DNA of 33,473 nucleotides, taken from a virus (Duplodnaviria; Caudoviricetes). The DNA lies in IMG/VR virus record IMGVR_UViG_3300005512_000172, positions 1 to 33,473 of that record; one strand, written 5' to 3'. The translations under genes were made by a program, and so were the position numbers. Position 1 is the stretch's first letter, and each line of letters opens with the position of its first letter. Below, piece after piece: positions 2,551 through 31,505 of the stretch. A model generated the notes under the pieces. It saw nothing but the letters and a program-made list of their open reading frames with translations. It did no database searches and was not told the DNA's origin.

Positions 2551-3191
2551 TAAGTTCTCATCTTCCTGACTGCACCGCTACGATAACTGTCAGTGGTGCT
2601 GTACCCCTCGCCCAGCTCTTCTAGGCGCTGGATTGCATCCTCATACCTTTGAACATACAACCCCATTAGATCCGCGTCGCCCTTGAGGTAGGTATACGCC
2701 TCGACCAAGCACCCATAAAGCAGTGTCGTCTCTGCGTTGGTGCCTAGCCAGCTCGTCCCAGATGTAGTGGTTGTGATTGACTCTGGTTTGTGGAAGTAAT
2801 GAAGCTCGACGGCAAAACTACTGCTTGGCGTTGGGCCAATCAGAAAGTAGTCGTCACTAAAAATGGCATACGCCTTGGGCACGCCAGTCACTGTTGAATC
2901 TGGGTATGCCTCACGCATGAAGTTCACGTCTTTAAATAGCAGGTACTCATACCCTGAGTTGTCTATAGCCAACGAGTATGGTGACAGGAAGTCTGTCGGC
3001 ATCGCCAAGTAGTTGTTACTCGCTGTCATGTTAGCAGTAACATTCTTGCGAAAATCAGGGAGCTGGCACCGCTTCAGGATTCTATCTTCTGCCTGCGTAA
3101 TAATGACTGGCAAGTTGTTGACGAAGCTGGTCTCATTCGATTCAACATAGTCTTGGATTGCCTGCTTGAGAGTGGTGAAGGTAAACGCCAT
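2550..3191 (-). CDS. Putative head-tail adaptor/tail tubular protein
   Basis: 213 aa with the helical N-terminus and GVPKxY...GPTP...ELHY...LLYGCLVEAY pattern typical of podovirus adaptor proteins; position after the head genes. Confidence 0.6.
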   Translation of the reverse strand: MAFTFTTLKQAIQDYVESNETSFVNNLPVIITQAEDRILKRCQLPDFRKNVTANMTASNNYLAMPTDFLSPYSLAIDNSGYEYLLFKDVNFMREAYPDSTVTGVPKAYAIFSDDYFLIGPTPSSSFAVELHYFHKPESITTTTSGTSWLGTNAETTLLYGCLVEAYTYLKGDADLMGLYVQRYEDAIQRLEELGEGYSTTDSYRSGAVRKMRT

Positions 3192-8247: not shown

Positions 8248-9297
8248 TTAGCTCTCCTTGAGTAACTGGTTGGCATATTGTTCGGGTGTAATACCAAGAC
8301 GCTTAGCGAGTGCGACTTGGGTGCGGCTCAACCTCACTTTGCGTGGTTTGGCGCCATTGTTCCTTGCGGAAGGTGCCACCACCACGGAGGGGCTTCGGGA
8401 AGTCGAGGAGACCGGACTCTCTGAGTCGGTCGAGCCACTACTCTCTTCTCCGAAGTATTCTGGGAACTTGCCCTGCACACGCCGGTCAAGCTCGTCATAG
8501 TAGTCGTCTGTCTCGGGGTCAAACCCCTCGTGACGGATCATCTTTTCGTGAACGCCGTAGGCGAACGCGGTCATTTCCATGTGGTCCTCAGACTGGAACC
8601 ACTTGTTCTGGTCTGCCCATGCCAGCGCTTTTTCGCTTGGCTTGCGCAGTTGAGGCTGTGTTTGCTCTGGCTGTTTGGCCTGCCGGTCTGTCACATGCCG
8701 GGCAAACTCGTCCTCTCTCGATAAGGGCCTAGACGCCTTGTAGTGGTGGGTTCTCTGAGAAATCTGACCCAGCTCATACTGCGCGCTATTTAGCGCCTTC
8801 TGAGCCTCAATCTGCTTCTCAGTATTGCCCTCCTCTACAGCTTGGCGAAGCGATGCTTCTGCGCTCGCCATCGCCATTTGGGCGCGTCGCTCTGACTCTC
8901 CAAGGAGAGCCCCTTCGCCCTGATGAAGTACACGTTGGAGTTCGCGATTCTGGTCTGCATACTGCTGGGCAACCTTGATCGCTTCTTCCCGCATACGCTC
9001 CGCATCTTCTCGGAGTCGCCGCTCTTGGTGCTGTTCATAACGGAGTTTGTTGATGCGCTTTTTGACTTTATCGCCGTAGCCCTTCAGCTCATCATCGTCG
9101 TCAGACTCATCCTTGGCAGGTTTTGCTTTTGCGATTGGGCGCTGATCTTCTGGCTCCCGATCATCAACAACCTCAATGTCAAAACTGGTATCGGACTCTT
9201 CTTGATCGACCTTCTTGCCTATCGTAGTCCGAACCCCGAGGAACTTGTCCTCGTTTGACATGGACGATTCTTCCATCTCAATCTGTTCTTCGCTCAT
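8248..9297 (-). CDS. Putative capsid scaffolding protein
   Basis: 349 aa, acidic N-terminus, long coiled coil, C-terminal LSxxQVALAKRLGITPEQYA; between portal and MCP. Confidence 0.7.
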   Translation of the reverse strand: MSEEQIEMEESSMSNEDKFLGVRTTIGKKVDQEESDTSFDIEVVDDREPEDQRPIAKAKPAKDESDDDDELKGYGDKVKKRINKLRYEQHQERRLREDAERMREEAIKVAQQYADQNRELQRVLHQGEGALLGESERRAQMAMASAEASLRQAVEEGNTEKQIEAQKALNSAQYELGQISQRTHHYKASRPLSREDEFARHVTDRQAKQPEQTQPQLRKPSEKALAWADQNKWFQSEDHMEMTAFAYGVHEKMIRHEGFDPETDDYYDELDRRVQGKFPEYFGEESSGSTDSESPVSSTSRSPSVVVAPSARNNGAKPRKVRLSRTQVALAKRLGITPEQYANQLLKES

Positions 9298-9647
9298 ACC
9301 TTCTCAATCCCCCTTGGGTCGTCAACAACAGCCTCAACACTGTCGTCATTGATTAGTCGAAACTCTTTACCGTGCACCTTGAATCGGGTGCCGCTATAAG
9401 AACGCATCAGAACCCAGTCCCCCTCTTGGCAGTAAGCGCCATTCGGAAACCGTTTCTCGTCCTTGTAAGCGTCTGCGCCCATCTTCAAAACGAACCCACA
9501 GATGGAACCAATCTCTTCCACCTTGAGTGTTTCAGCCGCCTTGATGATGCCGCCTTCCGTTTTCTCGTCAGGCTCTGGCAGTGCGATAAGTAGTTTGTAA
9601 CCTTTGGGTTCTGGAAGTTGACTTGCCTTCTTTGGCTCTTCCGTCAT
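9294..9647 (-). CDS. groES: Co-chaperonin GroES (Cpn10)
   Basis: LPEPKGYKLLI, mobile loop KTEGGII, GDWVL...YSGT...GKEFRLINDDSVEAVV. Start placed at 9647 by SD spacing (9656 is the alternative). Confidence 0.88.
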   Translation of the reverse strand: MTEEPKKASQLPEPKGYKLLIALPEPDEKTEGGIIKAAETLKVEEIGSICGFVLKMGADAYKDEKRFPNGAYCQEGDWVLMRSYSGTRFKVHGKEFRLINDDSVEAVVDDPRGIEKV

Positions 9648-9736
9648 GTTGTACATCCCTGCACCGAAAAGTGGCGTTCGGAGTCGCCTTGCGTCGCTTC
9701 ATGCAACGAAATCGGAAGCGCTCACTCCGTGAGCGT

Positions 9737-16404: not shown

Positions 16405-16433
16405 AGGACGGATTTCCCCTCAATGATTCCCTA

Positions 16434-16560
16434 CTAGGACTGTTCTAGGCTTAGGACTGTCCTAAGCAACAGGGAAACTACCTAAAAATAAAAAAATTTA
16501 GGTAAATCCTATCTAGGACTGCTCTAAGCTAGGTATATACTAGGAATAGGACTGTCCTAG
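16434..16560. repeat. Cluster 1 of TAGGACWGTCCTA palindromes
   Basis: Copies at 16434-16448 (one mismatch), 16449-16467 (perfect 19-bp GCTTAGGAC-T-GTCCTAAGC), 16513-16528 (degenerate) and 16547-16560. Confidence 0.85.
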
Positions 16561-16586
16561 ATAGAACAACCCTCCGGATTGTACAG

Positions 16587-16655
16587 ATACTACCCCCTTG
16601 ACAACCACATGTCTACAGTTTTACATGATTTTTTTAGTTTTTTTTAGTTTTTTTT
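16587..16655 (-). promoter_or_regulatory. Sigma70-like promoter for the late operon with upstream phased A-tracts
   Basis: Minus strand TAGACA (16615-16610), 17 bp, TAGTAT (16592-16587); three A7-8 tracts at a 10-bp period at 16629-16655 in the UP-element position. Confidence 0.55.
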
Positions 16656-16860
16656 CTTCAAGTACATCAGCTACTTACAGAAAAACCCCATTTTTTTGCA
16701 AAATTTTTTGCTCAGGTAGGATTCCTAGGCCCTTTTTTTAGAAAAAACCCCCTGCTAGACAGTATGACAGTGTGACAGTACCCAAAATTAGGTCATTTTT
16801 TGAGCGGAATACTATGTATATAGATGTCAGGTACCCGCGCTCTGTCAGGGGGGGTGGGGG

Positions 16861-17352
16861 TCAGTGGATCACGTCCGGGTCGGCGTCGGAATCGTCGGGA
16901 AAGTCGTCTGCCTCCGAGATGTCATCAGCTACCTGCTCCAGCATCGTCTCCAGCTCGGCCAACAGCTCGTCACTCGACTTGCTATCGCTGGTCTCCACCA
17001 CGTCCCGAAAGAGCCCGACCGACTTGCCCAACAGCTCGGCGGCTCTGATCTTGTTGCTATCACCTGCCTCGGCGCTATCAGTCCAAGCCCTTAGCTTGCT
17101 TAGCACTCTCTCTCTATCCGAGAGCGAAGAAGCGAGTATCGACCGCTCTCTCTGCGCTATCAGCGCGTCCACCCTTGCCTTGATGTCATCCCTCGCCATT
17201 AGCCTGCTGGCGGCTTCCCTGTGCGTCGCAGACTTACCATCCGCTGTCACGTCGAACGCCTCACGATACGCCGCCGCTTGTGTCATGCCCGCCGCAACGC
17301 ACCGGCAGAAGTGCATTTGTTTGGCTGTCAGCCCATCCCTTGTCTTGCCCAT
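16861..17352 (-). CDS. terS: Terminase small subunit
   Basis: LTAKQMHFC...TQAAAYREAF...AASRLM...KIRAAELLGK.VGLF pattern; start ATG 17352 behind GAGGT. Confidence 0.8.
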   Translation of the reverse strand: MGKTRDGLTAKQMHFCRCVAAGMTQAAAYREAFDVTADGKSATHREAASRLMARDDIKARVDALIAQRERSILASSLSDRERVLSKLRAWTDSAEAGDSNKIRAAELLGKSVGLFRDVVETSDSKSSDELLAELETMLEQVADDISEADDFPDDSDADPDVIH

Positions 17353-17424
17353 TAGTGTTACCTCACTTGTTACCAATCTACTCAAAGCGTTACCCAAAGT
17401 AACGCGTATGCTCCACAGCAACGC

Positions 17425-17549: not shown

Positions 17550-17775
17550 TACAACGAAAAACGCCTGTGAGCGATTTTAAGCACTTACCCCTTGCCGTGG
17601 TATTGCTTTTCTTAACTTGTCTCAGAGAGCGATACAGGGCTTCCTAGTGGCAACTTGTTAATGTCAAGAACTTTTTGCATTGATTTCACTGCGACACGCT
17701 GATCGTGGTTTTTTTCGCATATAGATGCAGGTAGATACTCGCGGTGATTTCTCACATTATTTTGCTTGTGACATG

Positions 17776-17805
17776 TTGCATGTAGGACAGGGGCATGCTT
17801 ATAAT
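17776..17805 (+). promoter_or_regulatory. Early sigma70 promoter
   Basis: TTGCAT (17776-17781), 18 bp, perfect TATAAT (17800-17805), upstream of the rightward gene run. Confidence 0.7.
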
Positions 17806-18128
17806 CCGCTCAGGGCAACGGGGAGCCCGCGCACGCAAATCCCGCAGGGCCTCAACCCTACCCAACCTGAGCGGCCAGCATGTCGGAGTGATTCAAGCCA
17901 CCCCGTCCTGAGCAAACGAGCGGCACATCATGCCAGCCCATGTGGAGGTTAAACGGGCGGTAGTGTGACAGTCGGAGCATCGCCGACCCCGCATTGATGC
18001 ACCAGCTATCCCATGCCCGCGCCGTGGGGTGGAGTGGCTGGTCAGAGTTTTCATCATGCCCATCTCACGGGGTGGGCATCTGTGAGCGCTCTGCTCTACA
18101 CCAACCTATTCACACGGGAGTGAATCAA

Positions 18129-18428
18129 ATGCGAAAGATCGAAATGAATATGAATTCCGCTGTCATGCTTGGTCGTGACTGGTCAGAAGCCAACACCAGC
18201 ACCAAGAAAATCTACGGGGCTGACGCAAAGGTAAGCGTTTACCTTCACGGTAATCACATCGCCACAGTCTGGGGTGCTTGTCACGGTCGGGATCAATGGA
18301 CGGTCGAGGTCAACACCCGCACGCTGGGTGAGTATCCAACGCGCACCACAATGTCACGGCTCCGCGCTCTGGGCGTGGATGTTTGCACCCGAAAGGGTGA
18401 AGTTCTGCTCGACGGGGTGGCACTGTGA
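18129..18428 (+). CDS. First early gene, conserved hypothetical phage protein
   Basis: Start ATG 18129 behind GGGAG; MRKIE...W...NT...VYLHGNxIA...TTxSRL pattern seen in aquatic phages. Confidence 0.75.
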   Translation: MRKIEMNMNSAVMLGRDWSEANTSTKKIYGADAKVSVYLHGNHIATVWGACHGRDQWTVEVNTRTLGEYPTRTTMSRLRALGVDVCTRKGEVLLDGVAL

Positions 18429-18799
18429 TGGATTTCTACAAAACAGACGGCGGCAGAATCTGTCGCACCTTCAAGGATGATTGCGTCATCCGCTCCATCT
18501 CGATTGCAATGCGAAAGCCATACGCCGAGGTTTTCACCGAAATGATGGCGCTGGGCCTTGAGATGGGCGCCTATCCAAACCATGAAAAGGTCTGGATCAA
18601 GTACCTTGAGAGCAACGGCTTCAAAAAGAACCGGCCCCCTCGCGATGAGAGGGGCAAGCTAATCAAGTTGCGCGATTGGGACTTCAAGGGCACCGCAGTC
18701 GTCCGCAACAGCCGTCACCTAACAGCGGTGGACGGTGGCACCGTCATCGACTCATGGGACTGCCGACGCAGACCCGTCAATTCATACTGGTCAAAGTAA
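18428..18799 (+). CDS. Putative papain-like (Cys-His-Asp) enzyme
   Basis: DDCVIRSISIA...RHLTAVDGGTVIDSWD; TGATG coupling to the upstream gene. Confidence 0.55.
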   Translation: MDFYKTDGGRICRTFKDDCVIRSISIAMRKPYAEVFTEMMALGLEMGAYPNHEKVWIKYLESNGFKKNRPPRDERGKLIKLRDWDFKGTAVVRNSRHLTAVDGGTVIDSWDCRRRPVNSYWSK

Positions 18800-18823
18800 A
18801 AAGCGGGGGCCATGTGCCCCCAA

Positions 18824-18874
18824 GGTCTGACAGATAGCACTGTCACTGAGGATGGCCTGATGCTGGCCGAAACC
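18824..18874 (+). ncRNA. Type III hammerhead ribozyme
   Basis: GGUC (cleavage after C18827); stem I UGACAG/CUGUCA; core CUGAGGA; one extra U; stem II GGCC/GGCC; GAAA; stem III ACC/GGU; loop I AGCA complementary to loop II UGCU. Confidence 0.78.
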
Positions 18875-18898
18875 AATTCACTAAGGGAGTGAATCAAT

Positions 18899-19876
18899 AT
18901 GAGTTTTATCGAAACCGCTTCAAACAATTTCATGCTGGTGCAGGTCACGGTTCGCCGCTGGTCTGGTGTCCAGCAACTCAAGTCGGGCTCAGCCAAGGCC
19001 GCTCAACAGGCCAACGCCAACCCCGACGCCGCCCGTATGTATGTCAACCTGCTGGGTTCACACCATGCGGATCTCAAGCAGGTGTCAGCCAAGTTTGCCG
19101 CCATCCGCACCTACCTTTACGAGCACACCCTGCCCTTCTCTGATGCGGGCGAGGGCCAGCAACGTCGAGGCGACCGGCTGGTCGCTGTTGCCAATGTGCC
19201 CGAAGTGCTCAGCAAGCTGGGCGAATTGAAGTCGGAGGCATACGCCGCGCTCGACGCATTCCTGCCCGAGTATGACCGGCTCCGAGAGTTTGCGATCCAG
19301 CATGATCTCGGCGACTGGCGCAGTGAAGTGACATACCCCACCGCTGACGAGGTGCGCAGTATGTTTGCCGCATCGCTGACGCCGCCTCAACCGATCCCAA
19401 TGTGTGACATGTCAGCACTAAACCTGCCCGCTGGGCTCGCCGCTGACATCGCCGCACGTCACGAAGCCGCGCTATCGACTCAACTGGAAGGCGCCAAGGA
19501 CGCCGCTATCGACGGGGCTCGGGATCACATGGCGAACGTGGAAAAGCAGTTGACTGATGGCAAGCGCCTCCACCAATCGCTGATCGACAACGCCAAGCGC
19601 CACGCCACCCTGTTGCGCGGGATGGTGCAGGGGTATGACAACGATCCCCGCGTGCTCCAGATCGCTGACCTGATCGACGAGCAGATCGGTTCAATCGGCA
19701 ACATTGAGAAAGTCAAGAACAGCGCGACTCTCAGGGCGACCGCTATCCGCGCCGCTCAGACCGCGCACAAAACACTGGGTGCAGTATCCAACGCGCCTTC
19801 AACCGCTAAACCCGTGGCACCTGCCGCATCCAATGTGGTCATGGGCGACTCACTGCTCGCTGACCTTATCGACTAA
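18899..19876 (+). CDS. DUF3150-like helical protein
   Basis: MLVxVTVRRWSG...IRTYLYEHTLPF...G.RLV...YPTADEVR..F pattern of the family that accompanies AAA/vWA pairs. Confidence 0.6.
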   Translation: MSFIETASNNFMLVQVTVRRWSGVQQLKSGSAKAAQQANANPDAARMYVNLLGSHHADLKQVSAKFAAIRTYLYEHTLPFSDAGEGQQRRGDRLVAVANVPEVLSKLGELKSEAYAALDAFLPEYDRLREFAIQHDLGDWRSEVTYPTADEVRSMFAASLTPPQPIPMCDMSALNLPAGLAADIAARHEAALSTQLEGAKDAAIDGARDHMANVEKQLTDGKRLHQSLIDNAKRHATLLRGMVQGYDNDPRVLQIADLIDEQIGSIGNIEKVKNSATLRATAIRAAQTAHKTLGAVSNAPSTAKPVAPAASNVVMGDSLLADLID

Positions 19877-19902
19877 TCACGATTCCTAGGGAGGGATTCA
19901 AT

Positions 19903-21036
19903 ATGTCGCATATCACAACCAATATCGCTCAGCTTGAGCAAATGGCCCCCGTCATCCTCAACAGTGCCCAGCGCAAACCGCTGGTGCTGGTCGGCATGGT
20001 CGGGATTGCAAAAACCCAGTGGATCAAATCCACCTATCACGACCTGTACGCCGAGCACCTTGGGCTCTCGACTGATCGAGTCGGGTTCATTCAAGAGCGT
20101 GTGGCCAACCGTGACTCTGCCGAGATCGCGGGCGTCGCGCTCCCCGTCAAGACCGAGGACGGTGACGTGCTGACCAAGTTCACGAAGCCGCCGCTGATTA
20201 CCAAGATCGAAGAAACGGGTCTGGAGCATGGCATCATCCTGTTCGATGAGATGTTGCAGGCACCCGCCGACGTTCAGAAGGTGCTCGCCGACGTGCTTGA
20301 TCCTGACGAGCGCACGCTGGCTGGCTGGGATATCCCCGAGGGCTGGATCGTTGCGGCGACTGGCAACCGTGTCGCTGACAAGTCTGGAGCAAGCCGCTTG
20401 CTCTCACACCTGCTCAACCGATGCCGCATCTTTGAGTTGGAGTTCAACGTCAATCAGTGGGCCGACTGGGCCCGCAGTAACGATGTCAACCCGCTCGCCA
20501 TCGACTGCGCGGTGACGTATCACGGCGAGGATTTCTTTGCCACGTCAGTCCCGACCGAGGACGGACCATTCTGCACCCCGCGCTCGCTGGTGCATGCCGC
20601 CTCTGACCTGACCGCGTTCATGGATACCGATGCCTTTGATGGCACCTATATCCCCTCGCACATTGAGGCGCTGGTCGCATCAAGTATCGGGCAACGTGCC
20701 GCTGGCATGTTGTCACGTCACATCGCTATGGCTGACGAGGTGCCTCAAGCCGAGGATATCTTTGCTGGCCCCAACGATGCCAATGTGCCAGATTCGACCG
20801 GCTACCAACTGCTCGCCGCCAACCGAGCTATCAACGGCGCCGAGACTGCCAACATGGGCGAGGCCGCACTGCAATACATCGTGCGCTTGCGTCCCGACTT
20901 GCAGGTATCGCTGGGCACCAAACTGCTCCGCGCCTCTGCCAAAAACGGGTGGGTGCTGACATCTGATGTCGCTACCGCATTCATCCAGAAGTTCCACGAC
21001 CTGATCCCGCTCGCCGAAGCGGCCAACTGGAGGTAA
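19903..21036 (+). CDS. MoxR-like AAA+ ATPase
   Basis: Walker A variant GMVGIAKT, Walker B IILFDE, sensor ATGNR, Arg finger LLNR, sensor II TPRS. Confidence 0.85.
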   Translation: MSHITTNIAQLEQMAPVILNSAQRKPLVLVGMVGIAKTQWIKSTYHDLYAEHLGLSTDRVGFIQERVANRDSAEIAGVALPVKTEDGDVLTKFTKPPLITKIEETGLEHGIILFDEMLQAPADVQKVLADVLDPDERTLAGWDIPEGWIVAATGNRVADKSGASRLLSHLLNRCRIFELEFNVNQWADWARSNDVNPLAIDCAVTYHGEDFFATSVPTEDGPFCTPRSLVHAASDLTAFMDTDAFDGTYIPSHIEALVASSIGQRAAGMLSRHIAMADEVPQAEDIFAGPNDANVPDSTGYQLLAANRAINGAETANMGEAALQYIVRLRPDLQVSLGTKLLRASAKNGWVLTSDVATAFIQKFHDLIPLAEAANWR

Positions 21037-21042
21037 CAAGTT

Positions 21043-22428
21043 ATGAGAGCCAAAAAGCTGTTCGCTCCGACCGATGACCTGAGCAATTCGCGCCGTTACA
21101 TTGCGGCGCTGATCGCTCTCCAAGCCAAGGCGCCAGTGCATTACAGTGTACTGCTCGCCACCGAGGTGATCTGGACTGACAAAATCCCGACTGCCGCTAC
21201 CGATGGCGTGTATGTTTACGTCTCCCCCGACTTCTTCCGAGGTCTGGAGAGCGACCAACAGCGCGCATTCCTGCTCGCTCACGAGGTGTCGCACATCATC
21301 CTGCGGCACCCCCAGCGTGGGCAGGCGTACCAGAAGCGCGGGCGCTTCAACTCCAGCACCCCGTTCGACGCCGCACTCTACAACCGCGCCGCTGATTACG
21401 TCATCAACTCCGACTGCAAGGCGATGGGTCTGGAGCCGATACCCGAAGGGTGCTACTCCGACGAGTATGGCCGCAACGATCTGGTCGACTCGGTATACCT
21501 GTCGATCCACTCAAACCAGCCCGAGCCCGAGCAGTCTGAGGGCGCCGAGCAGGATGACGATGGTGAGCAGGGTTCAGGTCAGCAGTCTGCTGGTGACAAG
21601 TCAGATCCAAGTGGCGGCGCCGGAGAGGGCGACTCATCCGGACAATCAGAGCCGGAGCTTCCCGATGCCGAGGGCCACGACTACCACCTGACGCCGCAGT
21701 ATGAGGGCGACGACGACGAGCAGGAAGCCGCCGCTCGTGAGGATGAGCACCAACTCCGCTCATCTGTCGATGACGGTATCGAACAGCTTGAGCGTGACGG
21801 TGGCGACAAGGCCAGTATCAGTGACGAGATCCGCGAGGGCTCGCACCGCTACCGATCCTCGACTGCCAGCGACACCGACTGGCGAGCAGAGCTTGCTGAT
21901 CGGTTCACTCGCGCAGGTGATGGCGGCCAGAAAACATGGTCGCGCATCCATCGCCGACGCTATGCCACGCTGAATGTCATCAGCCCCACGTCAATCGGGC
22001 AGGTCGGTCGGGTGGCGCTTGTCATTGACATCTCAGCGTCAGTCGACACCGAACAGCTTGACCGCTTTATGACCGAGTGTGCATCGCTGATCGACACGAC
22101 CCAGCCGCGTGATGGCGTCGTGGTCTGCTGGACTAACCACATGATGCGCGAGGCTGTCGAGGTCTACTCGGGCGCCGAGCTTCTGGATCTGGAGGCGCCG
22201 TGTGGTGGTGGCACCTACATGACCGCAGGCGTCGAGTGGCTGGAGGCTAACGGTCTGGAGTCCGACCTGACTCTGGTGTTCACCGATGGCGAGATGATGC
22301 ACGATGACTGGCAGTCACTGGGTCAGCGTGACAATCTGGTGGTGGTGCTCGACCGCGAACCCTACCACTACATCCGACGCGACATCGCCGAGTCTGGTGT
22401 CGACACCATCGTCGCTCAGGCGGCGTAA
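21043..22428 (+). CDS. HExxH metallopeptidase-vWA protein (DUF2201-like)
   Basis: PTAATDG, HEVSH, NRAADYVIN; acidic linker; vWA MIDAS residues DISAS...GGGT...FTDG. Confidence 0.85.
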   Translation: MRAKKLFAPTDDLSNSRRYIAALIALQAKAPVHYSVLLATEVIWTDKIPTAATDGVYVYVSPDFFRGLESDQQRAFLLAHEVSHIILRHPQRGQAYQKRGRFNSSTPFDAALYNRAADYVINSDCKAMGLEPIPEGCYSDEYGRNDLVDSVYLSIHSNQPEPEQSEGAEQDDDGEQGSGQQSAGDKSDPSGGAGEGDSSGQSEPELPDAEGHDYHLTPQYEGDDDEQEAAAREDEHQLRSSVDDGIEQLERDGGDKASISDEIREGSHRYRSSTASDTDWRAELADRFTRAGDGGQKTWSRIHRRRYATLNVISPTSIGQVGRVALVIDISASVDTEQLDRFMTECASLIDTTQPRDGVVVCWTNHMMREAVEVYSGAELLDLEAPCGGGTYMTAGVEWLEANGLESDLTLVFTDGEMMHDDWQSLGQRDNLVVVLDREPYHYIRRDIAESGVDTIVAQAA

Positions 22429-22568: not shown

Positions 22569-22592
22569 GGGGCCACACGCCCCTTATTTTTT
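22569..22592 (+). terminator. Rho-independent terminator ending the first early operon
   Basis: GGGGC-CACAC-GCCCC followed by TTATTTTTT. Confidence 0.7.
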
Positions 22593-22604
22593 AGGGAGAG
22601 AAAC

Positions 22605-23411: not shown

Positions 23412-23649
23412 GCACACGTTTGGGAAACTCAATCAACGCGACCGCATCAAGAAATTTCTTGAAATGGGTCAAACCCTGACACGCCTCAATGCGTGGGCGC
23501 GTCTGGGGATTCTGGAGGCTCCCGCTCGCATCTCAGAACTGCGAGCAGAGGGTCACGATATCAAGACGAAAATGGTGACAGTCCGCAATCGCTATGGCCA
23601 CAAGGTCAGCGTAGCGGAATGGTCTATGGGAGATACCAATGACAAGTGA
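23398..23649 (+). CDS. Winged helix-turn-helix protein
   Basis: LTRLNA...LGI...PARISELRAEGHDIKT...VAEW. Confidence 0.75.
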   Translation: MSPHEHTFGKLNQRDRIKKFLEMGQTLTRLNAWARLGILEAPARISELRAEGHDIKTKMVTVRNRYGHKVSVAEWSMGDTNDK

Positions 23650-23824
23650 GCAGATAGAAAAACAGATCGCCGACTTTCAGAAACGGGGCGGCAAGATCCA
23701 AAAGATTGAGAGAGGGCTCAGCGCGACCAGCATGGTGGGCGGGCCTTTTAACAACCGATCAGCAGAGCGGAACAGAACTAAGCGTGGAGGCTTAGGGATC
23801 ACCGTCAAGGAGAGAAGCCGATGA
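23639..23824 (+). CDS. SutA-like putative RNA polymerase-binding protein
   Basis: IEKQIADFQKRGGKIQKI resembles the SutA core (EFLxRGGKVQxI). Confidence 0.55.
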   Translation: MTSEQIEKQIADFQKRGGKIQKIERGLSATSMVGGPFNNRSAERNRTKRGGLGITVKERSR

Positions 23825-31176: not shown

Positions 31177-31505
31177 GTAATGATAAGTACCCAAAGACTG
31201 AGGGCGGCTTGTACACCAACCAGTACAAGAAGGCCAACAACCAGCCTGACTGGACAGGTAATGTGAAGATCTCTTCTGCACAGATCAAAAACATTATCGC
31301 GATGGGCAAGGCTGGCGTTGAGCCGAAGCTAAAGCTGGCGGCATGGAATCGGAAGAGCAAGCAAGATGGCTCAGAGTATTTCTACATATCAGCCGAAGCT
31401 GAGTTTGATGAGTCGAAGGTTTCTGCGCCGCCTCAGACTTACTCCTCAGAAGTAGTAAGCGTGCCTGAACCCATCTCTCAGCCAGAAGATGACTGGCCGT
31501 TCTGA
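31173..31505 (+). CDS. Putative single-stranded DNA-binding protein
   Basis: PDWTG...AAW...YIS OB-like pattern; acidic tail EDDWPF like the SSB C-terminus; follows sak. Confidence 0.65.
   Translation: MSNDKYPKTEGGLYTNQYKKANNQPDWTGNVKISSAQIKNIIAMGKAGVEPKLKLAAWNRKSKQDGSEYFYISAEAEFDESKVSAPPQTYSSEVVSVPEPISQPEDDWPF

Follow-up and report, generated by a model that had tools for sequence, protein, structure and literature searches.

Results and Discussion

Setting of the locus

The window, by which we mean the whole stretch of 33,473 nucleotides that was analysed, is a linear marine phage record with an estimated completeness of about 57%, and genes for terminase, portal, major head protein and primase/helicase are present in it. 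The hammerhead described below lies within a run of small genes on the + strand that extends from a possible promoter at 17776–17805 to a terminator-like site at 22569–22593, and from this layout we take the block to be "early". The promoter candidate is of the sigma-70 type (TTGCAT, 18 nt, TATAAT); it was read from the sequence, lies below the threshold of the promoter scan, and retains both of its hexamers in L001, one of the relatives (L-numbered loci) that were drawn from viral and metagenome contigs. Upstream of the hammerhead we find a small gene of unknown function belonging to phrog_3754 (18425–18799, +), and downstream (18899–22428, +) three genes, referred to as the triad, for a DUF3150-like protein (a weak match below the cut-off), an AAA+ ATPase and a DUF2201/vWA-like protein. 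After the vWA-like gene stands an intrinsic-terminator-like hairpin (22569–22583, +) with a U-tract that reaches to 22593.

A BLASTN search with 17700–19900 against a collection of annotated phages gave no match. The sole hint to a host comes from a Luminiphilus MAG (Halieaceae, a gammaproteobacterium): one of its contigs, 8.9 kb long, encodes an AAA+ protein of 64% identity and carries a type I hammerhead-like motif (U4C) ahead of its DUF3150-like gene as well as the same terminator; this contig may be misbinned. The early block has a long leader without a convincing gene (17810–18040 in the window, 1350–1700 in L001), which is entirely different in these two despite near-identical flanks on both sides, and at least two leader types recur among the relatives. 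Within the leader of the window, the word GGCGGTAGTGTG at 17956–17967 resembles an ops/JUMPstart site (Rfam JUMPstart model with E 1.3, below threshold), and a loose version of it was found at any position in 13 of 84 related loci. Sites of this kind are linked to RfaH.

A type III hammerhead motif

A complete type III hammerhead motif is confirmed in the sequence at 18824–18874 (+), with all parts in order and each of them where the original prediction had placed it. The 5′ strand of stem III (GGU, 18824–18826) is followed by C17 (18827), the GUC triplet being 18825–18827. Stem I pairs UGACAG (18828–18833) with CUGUCA (18840–18845) over 6 bp around loop I (AUAGCA), and behind it come the core CUGAGGA (18846–18852) and an optional extra U (18853). 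Stem II is formed over 4 bp by GGCC at 18854–18857 and GGCC at 18865–18868 around loop II (UGAUGCU), and the core GAAA (18869–18872) leads into the 3′ strand of stem III (18872–18874), which makes 3 bp with 18824–18826; stems I and II are thus closed by loops, and stem III is open. Both predicted flanking hairpins are present as well. A GC hairpin of 6 bp with a 5-nt loop (18805–18821, +) lies directly 5′ of the predicted cut and starts 5 nt past the upstream stop codon. On the 3′ side of the ribozyme an RBS hairpin (18876–18894, +) holds the SD-like AAGGGAG mostly in its loop and is followed by the ATG at 18899–18901, so that the hammerhead is placed 25 nt before the next start.

Scanned on both strands, the window contains a single match to the hammerhead descriptor, and in 300 dinucleotide shuffles the stricter settings gave no match, and the loosest ones an average of 0.023 matches per shuffle. 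A second CUGANGA...GAAAC pattern on the minus strand (31419–31449) fails the stem tests and was rejected, and a scan for GAAAC combined with an RBS hairpin returned one unrelated locus only. Rfam, which the original prediction had proposed as a check, gave no support: the hammerhead models of release 15 gave no match in the window, neither at the gathering score nor at E values up to 10. As 16 other loci with the hammerhead pattern did not give a hammerhead match either, these models look insensitive to the short phage forms, as judged from loci that were defined by their pattern. The class assignment is made from core and topology and not from an Rfam family, and the miss implies that standard annotation overlooks a common class of phage hammerheads; about 1200 stretches of viral contigs match one narrow hammerhead pattern.

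In the secondary-structure ensemble, which ignores the core and tertiary contacts, the pair probabilities are 0.75–1.0 for stems I and II and only 0.03–0.04 for stem III. As stem III is scarcely populated in it, activity of the hammerhead would depend on core and loop contacts. The RNA very probably cleaves itself, with the cut predicted after C18827 (18827/18828). Among the sequencing runs no RNA data set was listed as containing the region, and three RNA contig sets from the same sample or the same study had no coverage of it; these results weigh neither way.

Conservation in related phages

Covariation in related phages, which the original prediction had proposed as a check, was found, and stems and core are conserved. 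We aligned 27 distinct hammerhead copies, which were chosen by a pattern that requires the core, so that core invariance in this set is given by construction; the pattern left the stems largely unconstrained. Pairing across the 27 copies is 100% in each of the three stems, compared to 26–51% in slid controls, and pairs changed on both sides occur at five of six positions in stem I, two of four in stem II and one of three in stem III. Across the alignment 9 of 23 pairs show changes in both partners, where shuffles give 4.4; these counts overstate the number of independent events, as the copies share descent. The U16.1–A15.1 pair of the NUH triplet is found in 27 of 27 copies, and the extra U equivalent to 18853 is present in 19 of them; as it is absent from the other 8, it is dispensable for the fold. 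The plus-strand hammerhead of CChMVd reportedly has an extra nucleotide, too.

For a view of the whole class we used 201 distinct pattern matches, of which 149 pass the stem filters and 137 are viral loci, with 130 distinct loop pairs. The 3-bp stem III had been regarded as the weak point of the element, and its length was given correctly, but it turns out to be a family trait: of the 27 copies, 16 have a stem III of 3 bp, 10 one of 4 bp and a single copy one of 5 bp. Among the 137 phage type III hammerheads, only 8 have a stem III of 3 bp or less.

The core was tested on copies picked by the 5′ hairpin alone. Three of the 31 hairpin contexts obtained in this way lie behind the vWA-like gene and belong to no ribozyme, and the 28 remaining copies comprise 24 canonical ones, two with U4C, one with a two-base insertion and one that is broken (L140). 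With L140 and L127 dropped as non-ribozyme from the 28 rows of the per-position table, C17, C3, G5, A6, G8 and A9 are invariant in 26 of 26 copies and U4 in 24, and N7 alone varies freely (U, A, G). A scan in which loops and core were fixed and stems and GUC were left free gave 17 matches, 13 of them distinct, and all 13 show the GUC together with 6 bp in stem I and 4 bp in stem II. Conserved catalytic positions next to changing stems and a changing N7 fit what selection for catalysis predicts. The broken copy in L140 (minus strand, about 2800–3030) contains a small gene that splits the 5′ hairpin and the start of stem I from an eroded core and stem II.

The hairpin at 18805–18821 belongs to the same sequence family as the terminator hairpin at 22569–22583 but has no U-tract on the + strand. 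A hairpin of this family with a U-tract stands after the vWA-like gene in the window and in L001, L125 and L457. A role of 18805–18821 as terminator for the minus strand was rejected; a minus-strand T-run is present in the window, but of 29 hairpin contexts just two have one. Within the class, a hairpin of −8 kcal/mol or better lies directly 5′ of 80 of the 137 phage type III hammerheads, and 106 of them have an SD-like motif and a start codon within 56 nt of the GAAA, compared to 13 in shuffles, with a median of 25 nt from GAAA to start codon. The RBS hairpin is repeated at 18108–18131 in the window and stands ahead of many early genes in the relatives.

Proposed loop–loop contact

The pairing proposed between AGCA of loop I and UGCU of loop II is only partly a property of the family. 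The 4-bp complementarity exists in the window, but its fourth pair, A18839–U18861, is broken in 2 of the 27 aligned copies and in 6 of the 13 distinct copies from the stem-free scan, and the kissing helix common to the family has 3 bp. As the loops of the family are nearly invariant, this helix shows no covariation within the 27 copies. For phage type III hammerheads as a class, loop–loop covariation is clear from the sequences: at least four Watson–Crick pairs between loops I and II are possible in 23 of the 130 loop pairs, against 7.1 with partners swapped (maximum 16 in 2000), with both words of a pair changing in concert (UGCU/AGCA, UGCC/GGCA, UCCU/AGGA and others).

According to the available text of Dufour et al. 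(PMC2632901), natural hammerheads dock through a loop 1 of the form UNmYN and a loop 2 of the form RNnA, which are joined by a U–A reverse Hoogsteen pair. Loop I of the window starts and ends with A and loop II starts and ends with U, so that the 5′ U of loop I and the 3′ A of loop II are both missing. As in CChMVd, sTRSV and most of the natural hammerheads covered there, one phage loop (UGAUGCU) fits UNmYN and the other (AUAGCA) fits RNnA, and the two resemble UGACGUC and AUGACA of CChMVd(+); unlike in the motif of Dufour et al., the phage hammerhead carries the two loop types on opposite stems. Such a swapped contact is plausible, as the double mutant in which the U and A partners trade places still cleaves, at 1.09 per minute in the table of the same source. 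Docking of loops I and II is likely to involve three Watson–Crick pairs (AGC with GCU) and a U–A contact in a mirror image of the usual order, a geometry that we infer.

With slightly different loop boundaries from those of the 130-pair set, the usual loop order was found in 96 of 123 phage type III loop pairs and the reverse order in 5. Two further type III hammerheads, in L348 and L373, have reversed loop polarity with unrelated loop sequences, and the more distant relative L133 (2470–2535) has a type III hammerhead with an AUA triplet and the two loops of the window in the usual order. Mirrored loops together with the natural exact swap in L133 would offer a test of the symmetry of hammerhead docking, and the mirrored-loop hammerheads might also serve as compact natural insulator parts.

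Interchange at gene junctions

From 78 loci with a DUF3150-like gene, 60 with at least 130 upstream bases and a distinct sequence were compared for the element in front of this gene. A type III hammerhead is present in 11 of them, a type I hammerhead in 3, a long hairpin called motif X in 19 and no recognised element in 27, the calls being based on patterns that variants can escape. In a quick tree of 53 DUF3150-like proteins these four labels are unclustered (22 changes needed, compared to 23.3 in shuffles), and the label differs within two pairs of DUF3150-like proteins of identical sequence. In relatives at 97% protein identity the triad gene abuts the previous gene with no element between them, and in L001, whose protein is 97% identical, the upstream gene, the hairpin, the ribozyme and the RBS hairpin are all absent together. 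Among 97 distinct junctions, 29 carry a type III hammerhead, which follows 15 and precedes 11 gene families, with the DUF3150-like gene as its commonest downstream neighbour (11 of the 29). The special tie to the triad implied by the original prediction does not stand up to these close relatives without the element, its presence at only 11 of 60 related loci and the 11 downstream gene families.

Six junction types share the flanking gene families and differ in the element between them, five of the six being hammerhead versus motif X; 40 of 60 motif X junctions had no assigned upstream gene. One direct comparison is that of the window with L442, where a phrog_3754 homologue of 89% identity is followed by motif X instead of the hammerhead. 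Loci L382 and L383 differ by one unit consisting of a small gene, the hairpin, the hammerhead and the RBS hairpin, which suggests that hammerhead cassettes may be gained and lost by recombination between RBS repeats.

Further hammerheads were seen in the early regions of the relatives. Type I hammerheads are located in the same region in L128 (2760–2830), L411, L425, L131, L136 and L457 (620–690), and in many of these early-region type I hammerheads loop II seems capable of pairing with a CCA-type word that follows stem I on the 3′ side. The phage contigs L029, L050, L087 and L113 have three hammerhead matches within 3 kb, each ahead of an RBS.

Motif X

Motif X is a long imperfect hairpin with an overlapping short alternative hairpin. 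In the window (18043–18097, +) it precedes the phrog_554 gene with its RBS hairpin, where the first early RBS lies; in relatives it fills the slot of the hammerhead; 57 distinct copies were collected from the relatives, often two per early region. In an alignment of 55 sequences, from which one truncated copy and one with a long insert were left out, 19 consensus pairs are formed with 99.2% of the cells paired and five pairs changed on both sides. The short hairpin of the 3′ arm is possible in all 57 copies, and the long form is favoured over it in 58 of 58 sequences by a mean of 7.1 kcal/mol. The long form has the shape of an RNase III site, with about two helix turns and small internal loops. 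For RNase III a weak sequence consensus around the cut is described in the available part of PMC4357697. Against it motif X scores 10.5 of 16, compared to 9.5 for shuffles and 9.7 for hammerheads, and in 40 of the 57 copies the register that scores best has the cut at the base with which the short hairpin begins. Motif X is likely to be a T7-style RNase III site, for which these features are suggestive only.

Motif X has no match in Rfam. In a by-eye comparison of topologies no core of an HDV-like, twister, pistol or hammerhead ribozyme was recognised, and these identities were rejected. It seems unlikely that the hammerhead belongs to a phage kit for cutting mRNA without stopping transcription in which motif X is an undescribed class of self-cleaving ribozyme and not an RNase III site.

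Proposed role and alternatives

What the comparison of sequences has shown for the hammerhead is its fold, its conservation, its position and its replacement by other folded RNAs. We consider it probable that the hammerhead acts as punctuation, cutting a predicted early polycistronic mRNA and leaving protected ends, rather than as a regulator of the triad. The cut after C18827 would split this mRNA into two pieces. The upstream piece would end in the terminator-type hairpin plus six bases and so resemble a terminated transcript at its 3′ end, without a stop of RNA polymerase. The downstream piece would have its 5′-OH directly on stem I, which would form a terminal hairpin, and the RBS hairpin behind it would stay as it is. 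Motif X and type I hammerheads would be alternative devices for the same junction slot, swapped for one another when small gene cassettes are gained or lost between the repeated RBS hairpins. If the proposed cut in motif X is correct, both devices would leave a hairpin end upstream and a hairpin start downstream. In this phage group one and the same junction is naturally occupied by a hammerhead of type III or type I, by a long hairpin or by no element, and matched constructs should therefore allow a direct test of whether ribozymes stand in for RNase III sites.

An active ribozyme could also serve specifically to control how much, or when, the DUF3150/AAA+/vWA triad is expressed, as the DUF3150-like gene is the commonest neighbour and the element recurs before it in several branches of the tree. 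The loci were collected via this very gene, however, which inflates the count of 11 of 29, and the close relatives without the element and the diversity of gene families before and after it make such a control very unlikely. Another role would be the gating of translation by a cleavage that opens the downstream RBS. The ribozyme indeed ends 1 nt short of the RBS hairpin, but this closeness is general in the class, the cost of opening 18881–18911 falls only from 8.5–8.8 to 7.8 kcal/mol on cutting (a gain of less than 1), and the RBS hairpin forms whether the RNA is cut or uncut; we see little chance for this mode of action.

Cleavage might instead send one or both pieces to decay and thereby damp the operon, as cleavage of glmS leads to decay (PMC6765202, available part). 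This route is described mainly for Gram-positive hosts, and the only host hint here is a gammaproteobacterium; moreover, a hairpin is predicted at each of the new ends, that of the upstream piece being a copy of the terminator hairpin, which renders a destabilising role quite improbable. The short stem III, the mirrored loops, the two U4C copies, the broken L140 and the frequent absence of the element would also be in line with an RNA that folds but cuts slowly or never and is kept as a structured spacer or as a mobile hitch-hiker of the RBS repeats. A U4C variant of a viroid keeps enough activity in vivo, according to the available text of PMC3088659. A spacer would not need catalytic positions to be conserved while stems and N7 change, and an inactive element is hard to credit.

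Comparison with known systems

Phage T7 has RNase III processing sites between its early genes. Like these sites, the hammerhead is proposed to cut an early message between genes, and motif X has their long, internally looped hairpin shape; unlike them, the hammerhead would need no host enzyme, and motif X fits the consensus weakly and has an alternative 3′ hairpin. The kind of phage hammerhead is known, and the less usual features are the mirrored loops, the terminator-derived 5′ hairpin and the interchange with a non-hammerhead hairpin at the level of the junction.

With regard to the preferred reading as mRNA punctuation, processing of long transcripts by phage hammerheads was already proposed by Perreault et al. 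(2011; PMC3088659). In the available part of that work hammerheads flank variable genes in prophages, and pseudoknots are reported in all three types, those of type III being linked to a length difference of two pairs between stems I and II. Prophage hammerheads similar to the present one cleaved transcripts of 2 kb, both in vitro and in E. coli, and for a halovirus a transcript end is reported that lies no more than three bases from a hammerhead site (PMC3088659, same part). The hammerhead of the window shares with these phage hammerheads the type III core between phage genes, the variable neighbours, a predicted base-paired loop contact and, with the pseudoknotted type III forms, a stem I that is two pairs longer than stem II. 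Unlike those described in the available text, it is present in a single copy in the window, its loops are reversed, the terminator-type hairpin on the 5′ side of the cut is a fixed companion, and a non-hammerhead hairpin can take its place at the same junction. Our literature search, which covered mostly open-access papers, brought up nothing on mirrored natural loops and nothing on an interchange of hammerheads and RNase III sites in phages; the supplements of Perreault et al. may hold examples. The role of phage hammerheads is called open in the available text of two reviews (PMC6765202, PMC6155905).

RiboJ, an engineered sTRSV hammerhead with a hairpin before the RBS, raised mRNA about twofold according to the accessible part of Clifton et al. 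(2018; PMC6206723). As in RiboJ, the type III ribozyme of the phage stands before a hairpin and an RBS and is predicted to leave a hairpin-capped 5′ end. The phage element differs from RiboJ, as described there, in being natural and internal to an operon and in its second hairpin, which would protect the upstream piece.

Other features of the window

A small gene at 23639–23824 encodes a SutA RNA-polymerase-binding domain with a score above the Pfam cut-off, and a gene for a GroES-like co-chaperonin (9294–9656) is located between the portal and head genes. The region 16420–16760 is non-coding and rich in repeats, with many CTAGG-type words and long T and A runs, and is possibly a packaging or origin region. 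Adjoining these repeats is a minus-strand ORF (16861–17421) that may encode the small terminase.
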